This document shows positions 6,093-6,686 of a stretch of 64,000 nt of DNA, in pieces. The stretch lies in assembly GCF_030013205.1 (NCBI RefSeq), contig NZ_CP122648.1; one strand, given 5' to 3'. A program made the translations under genes and the position numbers. Position 1 is the first letter of the stretch. Every line of letters begins with the position of its first letter. Origin of the DNA: Escherichia coli (lineage in GTDB: Bacteria > Pseudomonadota > Gammaproteobacteria > Enterobacterales > Enterobacteriaceae). The notes beneath the pieces were generated by a model. It was not told the origin of the DNA. It saw only the letters and a program-made list of their open reading frames with translations, and searched no databases.

Positions 6093-6686
6093 TTGCAAAA
6101 GACTTTTCATATGCAGCGTCGAGAAATAAAGAAAATTACTTATTTAATCACTTTGATTTTAACTACTCTTTTGTTTGTTTATTTTTTAAGAACACCCACC
6201 ACAATCAATATGAAACAGGCGCATAAAATAAATCAACAACACCAGACAATTTTCCTTATCCGTCACGGTGAACGATGTGACAGAAGCAAAAATGCATGTC
6301 TCTCAAGCAATAAAGGAATTACCGTCAATGGTGCCATTAAAGCTCGTGATTATGGAAAAATATTTAGCAATACTTTCCCGTCATTCAGCCTTTACTCCAC
6401 GGATACCATACGGACAATGCAGACAGCCTGTTTTTTCTCTGGAGGAAAAGCAGCCTCCCGGATACCGTTGGCTGCAACATGTGGACTTGATGCTGCAAAG
6501 AACATACTCAAATTGTCATCCGATAATAAAACTACCGTTATATTCACCCATAATCATTGCCTGACACAAATAGCAAAAAAAATGAAATGGTGGAAGTTAA
6601 AGCCAGAATATCTTGAAACACTGGTTCTTCATATCGAAAACAATCGTCTCATTCTTGACGGAAAACTGACTCACGATAAAGCGTAA
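6093..6686 (+). CDS. Histidine phosphatase of the Ais/PmrG family (LPS core heptose(II)-phosphate phosphatase-like), prophage cargo
   Basis: 197 aa, N-terminal hydrophobic segment, RHGERCDRS catalytic motif; ...IRTMQTACFFSGGK...VIFTHNHCLTQIAKK... aligns along its length with E. coli Ais as recalled. Confidence 0.8.
   Translation: MQKTFHMQRREIKKITYLITLILTTLLFVYFLRTPTTINMKQAHKINQQHQTIFLIRHGERCDRSKNACLSSNKGITVNGAIKARDYGKIFSNTFPSFSLYSTDTIRTMQTACFFSGGKAASRIPLAATCGLDAAKNILKLSSDNKTTVIFTHNHCLTQIAKKMKWWKLKPEYLETLVLHIENNRLILDGKLTHDKA

Follow-up and report, generated by a model that had tools for sequence, protein, structure and literature searches.

A prophage-borne Ais-like histidine phosphatase gene of Escherichia coli preceded by a predicted PmrA/BasR-type promoter

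A 64,000-nucleotide stretch of the Escherichia coli contig NZ_CP122648.1 (assembly GCF_030013205.1), analyzed as a whole and referred to below as the window, carries within a defective lambdoid prophage a gene related to chromosomal ais/pmrG (forward strand, positions 6111 to 6686). Our preferred reading, to which we assign a probability of roughly 60%, is that its product is a membrane-anchored or secreted histidine phosphatase that faces the periplasm, a paralogue of Ais/PmrG, and that the gene forms a PmrAB-induced lysogenic-conversion cassette acting on the core of the lipopolysaccharide (LPS). This reading draws on the conserved catalytic residues and predicted fold of the protein, on the location of the gene in a self-contained cargo cassette, and on a PmrA/BasR-box-like repeat upstream of its start codon.

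An earlier note, made from the DNA letters without database searches, had described the gene as a prophage-borne Ais/PmrG-family phosphatase and as possible cargo. Both ideas hold up well. The automatic annotation of RefSeq (Prokaryotic Genome Annotation Pipeline, PGAP) names exactly this protein "LPS core heptose(II)-phosphate phosphatase," and the type of gene, its name, and its presence in a prophage were thus already captured, which makes them less new than the note implied. A limited literature search found no paper on phage-borne Ais/PmrG copies. What is new here, as judged from sequence comparison, is the recurrent location of such genes in lambda's bor slot across phage backbones, a corrected start codon, a corrected gene model in the Shiga toxin (Stx) phage GER2, and an apparently conserved PmrA-type promoter.

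RESULTS

The gene product is an Ais-like protein with a predicted histidine phosphatase fold

The translated open reading frame (ORF) matched the NCBIfam model of the Ais subfamily (NF011945; PRK15416) with 207.9 bits against a cut-off of 142, over residues 9 to 193 of the 197-residue translation; E. coli K-12 Ais reached 392 bits on the same model. In a BLASTP comparison, the protein and K-12 Ais (from the arnB-ais locus) shared 45% identity over 159 amino acids (E = 6e-48), and at the sequence level this likeness is far above chance. The resemblance to Ais described in the earlier note therefore stands, while the start of its ORF does not (see below). The family is small: an exhaustive search of 1.84 billion representatives returned 118 members at E <= 1e-3 and 40 at E <= 1e-10. 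No PHROG family and no PADLOC model matched the protein.

In a family alignment of 69 sequences, R51, H52, C56, C63, and G69 were invariant, and E54, R55, D57, S59, R101, Q104, C124, T146, H147, and C150 were nearly so, with R101 and H147 each kept in at least 90% of the sequences. R51-H52-G53 forms the RHG motif that defines branch 1 of the histidine phosphatases, and R101 and H147 supply the second arginine and the second histidine expected of that branch (PF00300). The motif RHGERCDRS (6261 to 6287, forward strand, within IRHGERCDRS at 6258 to 6287) thus holds the catalytic Arg51-His52 pair of the superfamily together with the conserved Cys56, and THNHCL (6546 to 6563, forward strand, within IFTHNHCLT at 6540 to 6566) holds the second catalytic histidine, H147, and the conserved Cys150. 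R101 lies within S-x-x-x-R-T-x-Q-T-A, a segment that the family profile aligns with the phosphate-binding arginine motif of fructose-2,6-bisphosphatase. In the profile alignment, THNHCL likewise falls on the "ICHQ" histidine motif of that enzyme, a stretch that is not significant when taken alone. All motifs listed in the earlier note (RHGERCDRS, FTHNHCLT, and the N-terminal hydrophobic stretch ITYLITLILTTLLFVYFL) are present, and the comparison with chromosomal Ais and its active-site histidine that it called for retains R51, H52, R101, and H147, with no catalytic residue lost. To judge from this conservation, the catalytic apparatus of the prophage protein is intact.

A sequence search of the PDB with the single protein found no match, and the family profile alone reached distant histidine phosphatases. 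The AlphaFold2 model, built with the family alignment as input, had a predicted local distance difference test score (pLDDT) of 95.4 and a predicted template modelling score (pTM) of 0.89. The top Foldseek matches of this model in the PDB were all histidine phosphatases at a probability of 1.00, E. coli SixA (1ujb) among them with a template modelling (TM) score of 0.71, target normalised. A SixA-like histidine phosphatase fold is therefore predicted with high confidence.

A corrected start codon and an N terminus that suggests export

An uninterrupted forward-strand ORF spans 6093 to 6686, giving 197 amino acids when counted from TTG 6093, which the earlier note had used as its start. Most likely, however, translation begins at ATG 6111, because all homologues align from that methionine; RefSeq annotates the same start (WP_001189672.1). 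The coding sequence of the Ais-like histidine phosphatase then runs from ATG 6111 to TAA 6686 and specifies 191 amino acids.

Behind the basic sequence MQRREIKK, a hydrophobic helix of 18 residues (residues 9 to 26; 6135 to 6188, forward strand) looks like a signal peptide or a signal anchor. The AlphaFold2 model has an N-terminal helix at residues 2 to 26, and the alignment shows an equivalent hydrophobic N terminus in every family member. An obvious small-x-small cleavage site was not visible in the N terminus. This N terminus, basic and then hydrophobic, and four conserved cysteines are consistent with an exported enzyme that would face the periplasm.

A PmrA/BasR-box-like repeat and a -10 hexamer precede the gene

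Upstream of the gene lies a direct repeat, GTTAAG-ATTTT-CTTAAT (6042 to 6058, forward strand), which resembles a PmrA/BasR box with one mismatch to YTTAAK-N5-YTTAAK and ends 52 nucleotides upstream of ATG 6111. Ten nucleotides downstream of the repeat follows the -10 hexamer TATATT (6069 to 6074, forward strand), which agrees with TATAAT at 5/6 positions. The experimentally verified PmrA box of Salmonella is CTTAAG-N5-xTTAAT (PMC3973317), and the arnB promoter of K-12 has the same layout, CTTAAGGTTAAGTTAAT followed by 10 nucleotides and then TAAAAT. No -35 hexamer was found at the proposed promoter, and a generic sigma-70 scan, which requires such a hexamer, called no promoter there. Such silence is expected of an activator-dependent promoter.

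The arrangement of box, 10-nucleotide gap, and -10 hexamer recurs in 8/9 upstream-region representatives of a clade of phage and plasmid homologues, with spacers that differ among them (ATTTT, ATTTC, GTGCA, GATTC, GATTA, and CGTTA), and the distance from the end of the box to the start codon is always 47 to 55 nucleotides (47 in GER2, 54 in pLD39). Thus, locus L008 has GTTAAG-ATTTC-CTTAAT and, after the gap, CATAAT; L011 and L012 have CTTAAG-GTGCA/GAGCA-TTTAAG and TATAAT; and L024 has CTTAAG-GATTC-CTTAAG and AATAAT. GER2, L015, and L026 to L028 share CTTAAG-GATTA-CATAAG (GATCA as the spacer in L027) and AATAAT, and pLD39 has ATTAAG-CGTTA-TTTAAG followed by AACAGT, a poor -10. The box was also present in 19/19 IMG/VR loci analyzed. 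In a box-anchored alignment, majority conservation was 0.89 and 0.83 in the two half-sites and 0.83 in the -10 hexamer, as opposed to 0.51 to 0.54 in the flanks. Local shuffles put the chance of a box at that position at 0.1 to 0.5% per locus, and only one of the 14 box-like matches in the window, that at 6042 to 6058, has a good -10 downstream.

Homology between the window and L011 is limited to the part to the right of 6289. The promoters and the 5' thirds of the two genes differ in history, and yet both loci carry the box. No box was found upstream of the homologues in fimbrial operons, of the homologue on an H58-type plasmid, or of IncI traG; these box-free members serve, at the level of sequence, as negative or specificity controls. 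Given the conserved layout of box and -10 hexamer, we propose that a PmrA/BasR-activated promoter, as predicted here, drives the prophage Ais-like gene.

The gene lies in a cargo cassette in the bor slot of a defective prophage

The window matches chromosomes of swine enterotoxigenic E. coli (ETEC) and of O139:H1-type E. coli at 100%. The region forms a defective lambdoid prophage next to prfC in strain K_EC180. In the order of the phage coding strand it comprises the Q antiterminator, a DUF6731 gene, a split AraC-family gene, tRNA-Gly, two holins, and the endolysin, followed by the Ais-like gene on the opposite strand, terS, a truncated fragment of the tail-tip gene (J), and lom. PHROGs and RefSeq confirm the location given in the earlier note, between the endolysin and the Nu1-like gene on the opposite strand. 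The lysis cassette comprises two holin genes (7138 to 7413 and 7403 to 7795; phrog_217 and phrog_198, also in RefSeq) and, as its last gene, an M15 endolysin (6758 to 7141, reverse strand; phrog_465, also in RefSeq). The small terminase subunit gene terS (DUF1441/Nu1-like; 5184 to 5678, reverse strand; phrog_141) directly adjoins a remnant of the tail-tip protein J, its C-terminal fragment (3297 to 5108), with pseudogene flags in RefSeq. This junction implies that everything from terL through the N terminus of J has been deleted and that the prophage is defective.

Comparison with relatives by megablast and blastn delimits an AT-rich cargo (moron) cassette of about 740 bp (5978 to 6720) that is absent from relatives sharing its flanks. 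Homology to these relatives stops at 5894 to 5917 on the terS side and begins at 6721 on the endolysin side; between these borders, only a 39-bp backbone hairpin (5939 to 5977) is common to them. The G+C content is 26 to 44% in the cassette (5900 to 6700) versus 52 to 60% in the phage flanks. Downstream of the gene, a GC-rich hairpin followed by UUUUGUAUU (6721 to 6755, forward strand) is a predicted intrinsic terminator that is common to the phage backbone (hairpin plus UUUU, RNA fold energy of -16.1 kcal/mol, z = -2.5); the hairpin is also kept in L006, a related prophage without the cargo gene. A simple terminator scan made no call at 6721 to 6755, because the loop and the bulges exceed its rules. 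The gene thus shows the hallmarks of a moron at the sequence level (presence or absence between shared modules, promoter elements and a terminator of its own, and deviant G+C content), in line with the earlier note's view of it as cargo. These features support a self-contained cargo cassette in lambda's bor slot, on the strand opposite to the late operon.

The earlier note had placed the gene where spanin genes would normally be. This point did not survive comparison: L006, with the same holin-holin-M15 cassette and no Ais-like gene, has no annotated spanin either, and in phages that do have Rz/Rz1 the Ais-like homologue lies downstream of them. No candidate spanin ORF was found on the reverse strand between 5680 and 6757. 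We also considered and rejected the gene itself as a spanin or a spanin replacement, since it lies on the opposite strand, is predicted to have a phosphatase fold, and has homologues that coexist with Rz/Rz1.

In a prophage that has lost terL through the N terminus of J, the Ais-like gene could be an inert passenger, a remnant that looks intact yet is unexpressed and leaves the host unaffected. The missing -35 hexamer and the silent promoter scan would suit this explanation, as would the weak Shine-Dalgarno sequence and the frameshifted and E54A alleles in circulation (see below), and AT-rich DNA is typically silenced by H-NS. We nevertheless regard a mere remnant as improbable. Nothing in the ORF, the promoter elements, or the terminator is disrupted, and at least nine genomes carry the gene sequence with 100% identity. 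Comparison of the coding sequence with phage-borne homologues in the clade, pairs with GER2 and pLD39 left aside, gave ratios of nonsynonymous to synonymous substitution rates (dN/dS) of 0.11 to 0.33, indicative of purifying selection. Moreover, box and -10 hexamer were kept while their flanks diverged, and the cargo genes lom (2627 to 3226) and the Ais-like gene survive intact where structural genes were deleted.

Several other elements of this prophage deserve mention. The hairpin at 5930 to 5990 (core 5939 to 5977) has a fold energy of -33.7 kcal/mol on the reverse strand (z = -7.5), and its core is kept at 89 to 97% where the lysis and packaging genes meet in prophages that otherwise differ (L006, L007, L011, and L012); this backbone element may act as a late-transcript terminator or processing site. 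A tRNA-Gly gene (anticodon TCC; 8254 to 8328, reverse strand) lies in the late region upstream of the holins, and L006 carries tRNA-Arg and tRNA-Ile at the corresponding position. The DUF6731 protein of 313 amino acids (9768 to 10709, forward strand; phrog_7651) is encoded opposite to the late genes and adjoins the AraC pseudogene; PADLOC found no match to it, and its gene is likely to be another cargo gene. Just beyond the left end of the window, K_EC180 carries a SLATT-domain gene and then a reverse transcriptase gene between prfC/dinI and the tail-fibre genes (L001 3720-5619), possibly a retron-type or other reverse transcriptase-based defence locus.

Homologues occupy the same slot in diverse phages and also occur on plasmids and in fimbrial operons

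The Ais-like gene is present in about 27 to 29 of 5,426 complete E. coli genomes (approximately 0.5%). Chromosomal ais, in contrast, is present in nearly all of them and matches the prophage gene at the DNA level over just 55 bp. K_EC180 keeps chromosomal ais next to arnB as a separate gene, so that two places match.

Homologues with 54 to 86% identity occupy the same slot in the same orientation next to three types of lysis cassette and at least four types of packaging module, Stx phages included. M15 lysis cassettes accompany P0003 (86% identity; ParB/Terminase_2 packaging) and P0005 (63%; P27/HNH or Nu1/gpA). P0009 (58%) lies between lysozyme plus Rz1 and Nu1/gpA, and P0013 (54%) between lysozyme plus Phage_lysis and DUF1441/Nu1 and gpA. 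The homologue in the Stx1 phage GER2 (54 to 62% identity) lies next to holin S, lysozyme, and an Rz-type lysis protein on one side and the small terminase ("DNA packaging protein") on the other. Over 1,000 contigs carry the GER2-type allele, among them those of O104:H4 C227-11 and Shigella sonnei. In GER2 itself (MG710528; L002 5920-6501) the full ORF of 193 amino acids is intact, with signal sequence and RHG motif; the GenBank record annotates just the C-terminal 90 amino acids, plus an overlapping antisense "hypothetical protein." In IMG/VR, family members were found on 21 viral contigs.

The gene appears to have recombined internally. The window and the P0005-type allele (L011/L012) are approximately 84 to 86% identical from 6289 through the endolysin and unalignable upstream, that is, over the 5' third of the coding sequence plus the promoter, and the C-terminal 45 residues of P0005 are identical to those of P0003. 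This mosaic of P0005, P0003, and window sequences implies recombination inside the Ais-like gene.

About 1,440 plasmids encode homologues, mostly the IncI protein TraG between traF and traH, and a copy with 62% identity lies between insertion sequence elements near AIDA-I on an IncF plasmid. Copies with approximately 50% identity form the last gene of chaperone-usher fimbrial operons, directly after an EAL gene (L017 and L018 5001-5594). The pairing of an EAL (cyclic di-GMP phosphodiesterase) gene with an Ais-like gene recurs on an IncF plasmid (L005 5371-7501).

These fimbrial copies bring up a different role, that of an AfrS-type factor which would turn on fimbrial or adhesin genes together with an AraC-family partner, in which case the name phosphatase would be misleading. 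AfrR and AfrS of the AF/R1 pilus operon reportedly switch on fimbrial genes, a frameshifted allele from UMNF18 (P0011) was deposited as "transcriptional activator AfrS," and an AraC-family gene lies 2 kb from the window gene (8746 to 9596). We consider such a role highly improbable. The protein has no DNA-binding domain; all of it is accounted for by a transmembrane helix and a phosphatase fold with strictly conserved catalytic residues, and an exported enzyme could influence transcription only indirectly. The link to AfrS itself is an annotation label, and the phage-borne copies are not beside fimbrial genes, with no pilus genes near the window gene. The AraC-family gene was rejected as a partner: it is a split, GadW-like pseudogene that is neither adjacent nor linked to Ais-like genes elsewhere. 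It consists of two ORFs on the reverse strand (207 and 66 amino acids; phrog_1450) in the cargo slot between Q and the holins, with about 32% identity to GadW and plasmid helix-turn-helix proteins, and is probably a decayed prophage-encoded regulator.

DISCUSSION

In the mechanism that we propose, activation of PmrAB (BasSR), for example by Fe3+ or Al3+, mild acid, or cationic peptides, would switch the gene on in the lysogen through recruitment of phosphorylated BasR to the box at 6042 to 6058. His52 of the exported enzyme would then attack a phosphomonoester in the inner core of the LPS. If PmrG is a guide, the substrate might be the phosphate that WaaY/RfaY adds to heptose II, and its removal would lower the negative charge of the surface. 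The periplasmic location, the dependence on PmrA, the heptose(II)-phosphate substrate, and any phenotype are what we infer from the gene and its relatives. The same holds for the consequences put forward in the earlier note, which are drawn from homology: dephosphorylation of the LPS core, a changed surface charge, and effects on phage receptors and on resistance to serum or peptides. PmrG is PmrA-activated and removes the heptose(II) phosphate added by WaaY/RfaY (PMC8129183 and PMC4312571).

The substrate is the weakest link of this mechanism: PmrG orthology is not indicated, and only one member of the family has been assayed. The protein could use the same fold and chemistry on another envelope phosphate, such as the lipid A 1- or 4'-phosphate, the phosphate or pyrophosphoryl-ethanolamine of heptose(I), undecaprenyl phosphates, or a phosphoprotein, as with SixA, and the effect at the surface would then differ from that of PmrG. 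The PmrG equivalog model (NF052369) gives the window protein 111.1 bits, below its cut-off of 170, and identity to Ais is just 45%. The nearest structures are phosphohistidine phosphatases of the SixA type and phosphatases that act on phosphoserine or small molecules, and the diverse contexts of the family (the IncI tra operon, the end of chaperone-usher operons by an EAL protein, and prophages) hint at a broader or different role. However, K-12 Ais itself stays below the equivalog cut-off (145.8 versus 170), so that this failure discriminates little. All members including Ais share the motifs RHGERCDRS...C, SxxxRTxQTA, and THNHC and the cysteine pattern, which points to one substrate class, and the predicted PmrA-type promoter would place the gene in the LPS-modification regulon. 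On balance, we think a different envelope substrate rather unlikely.

Returning to an Ais/PmrG paralogue that acts on the LPS core under PmrAB control, a number of observations weigh against it. For the protein, apart from the low equivalog score, the match to the Pfam family His_Phos_1 (PF00300) is weak (E = 0.0021, 18 bits, residues 53 to 118); many homologues do have a precomputed PF00300 match. The substrate is carried over across approximately 55% sequence divergence from Salmonella PmrG, the sole member with biochemical support, and the case for activity is computational throughout. Deletion of pmrG/ais alone in E. coli left polymyxin B resistance unchanged (PMC8129183, a study in which single alterations of the core had no effect), so any phenotype may be subtle or context dependent. 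For expression, the Shine-Dalgarno sequence of the gene is weak (AAAGA), and the first half-site of the box begins with G rather than C or T. The upstream region has a G+C content of 25%, which raises the expected rate of fortuitous boxes to 4% when all of the last 120 nucleotides are considered. Furthermore, the first half-site is degenerate in one lineage, L013, the sole such case, and the promoters of the clade share ancestry, so that the lineages are not fully independent. Finally, the prophage is defective. In the largest cluster at 90% identity (123 members), the representative P0001 reads RHGARCDRS with E54A at a nearly invariant residue, and the UMNF18 allele is frameshifted after residue 108; such alleles imply that some hosts can do without the gene.

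If the gene is active, it would represent lysogenic conversion that edits the LPS inner core, not the O-antigen, and that answers to a two-component system of the host; horizontally acquired cargo would arrive already wired to PmrAB. Resistance to cationic peptides, polymyxin, and metals, the stability of the outer membrane, and the adsorption of phages that bind the LPS core could then be affected. This would be relevant to ETEC and edema-disease strains of pigs and, through the sister alleles that they carry, to the Stx phages of O104:H4 and Shigella sonnei. Conceivably, though we find it doubtful, the Ais paralogues that mobile elements carry are a class of "envelope-charge tuners" with members in the lambdoid bor slot including Stx phages, on IncF virulence plasmids, in the transfer region of IncI, and at the last position of chaperone-usher operons. 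Were this so, the box of the phage/IncF clade would plug an extra LPS-core phosphatase into the PmrAB stress regulon of the host, and Fe3+, acid, and cationic peptides in the gut would boost core dephosphorylation. Susceptibility to peptides and metals might change, and other phages or IncI thin pili might recognize the LPS core differently. Adhesin expression might also be affected by feedback, which would fit the AfrS label.

There are consequences for annotation as well. The PGAP name "heptose(II)-phosphate phosphatase" goes back to one Salmonella experiment and has spread by homology alone to at least four clades on mobile elements, and the full gene model of 193 amino acids corrects the truncated annotation in phage GER2.

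Comparison with known systems

The closest well-known relative is E. coli Ais (b2252), which is aluminium inducible and is called PmrG in some E. coli papers. The two proteins share the NF011945 match, 45% identity, the same length, and an N-terminal export sequence, as well as the motifs RH(G/A)ERCDRS...C, SxxxRTxQ(T/S)A, and FTHNHCLT and the cysteines. Unlike the window gene, which lies in a prophage and occurs in approximately 0.5% of complete genomes, ais is chromosomal, divergent from arnB, and near universal, and its product scores far higher on the subfamily model (392 bits versus 208). At K-12 ais, the corresponding -50 position showed no PmrA box; a single box, that of arnB, occurs about 190 nucleotides upstream.

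Salmonella PmrG belongs to the same superfamily and subfamily and is PmrA-activated, and the window gene has what looks like a PmrA-box-type promoter. PmrG is the sole family member with demonstrated activity (Nishino et al. 2006, as cited in PMC8129183). The window protein differs in that it scores under the equivalog cut-off (111 versus 170), and so is not an orthologue, and its gene lies in a prophage by prfC, not beside the arn/pbgP operon. With SixA and other minimal branch-1 histidine phosphatases, the protein shares the fold and the catalytic RH...R...H arrangement. These enzymes, however, are cytoplasmic, lack the signal sequence and the cysteine pattern, have 12 to 17% identity, and, in the case of SixA, act on phosphohistidine on ArcB/NPr. 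The link to AfrS of the AF/R1 pilus operon is the name given to the UMNF18 allele, and a role as regulator is hard to reconcile with an exported enzyme.

IncI1 TraG is likewise a mobile-element copy, with approximately 43% identity and 293 bits on NF011945, and occurs on about 1,400 plasmids. It differs in its place inside the transfer operon, between traF and traH, and in having no PmrA box. In the transposon sequencing (Tn-seq) scores given for plasmid pESBL, the columns for traG are 0.79/0.21/0.00, versus approximately 0/0/1 for the essential genes traH to traJ (PMC4288162). We read these columns, taken without their headings, as suggesting that IncI TraG is largely neutral for conjugation.

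The gene in the Stx phage GER2 is similar to the window gene in sequence (54 to 62% identity), in slot and orientation, following Rz and preceding the gene for the small terminase, and in the sequence of box, 10-nucleotide gap, and -10 hexamer, although it belongs to another allele lineage on another backbone (Sepvirinae). The arrangement as a whole is reminiscent of lambda bor, an opposite-strand gene between the lysis genes and cos/Nu1 that has a promoter and a terminator of its own. The proteins are unrelated, and Bor is not an enzyme. Both bor and lom are lysogenic-conversion genes of lambda; bor is expressed from the prophage and its product, an outer-membrane lipoprotein, is directed at the envelope, and lom is also kept in the window prophage.

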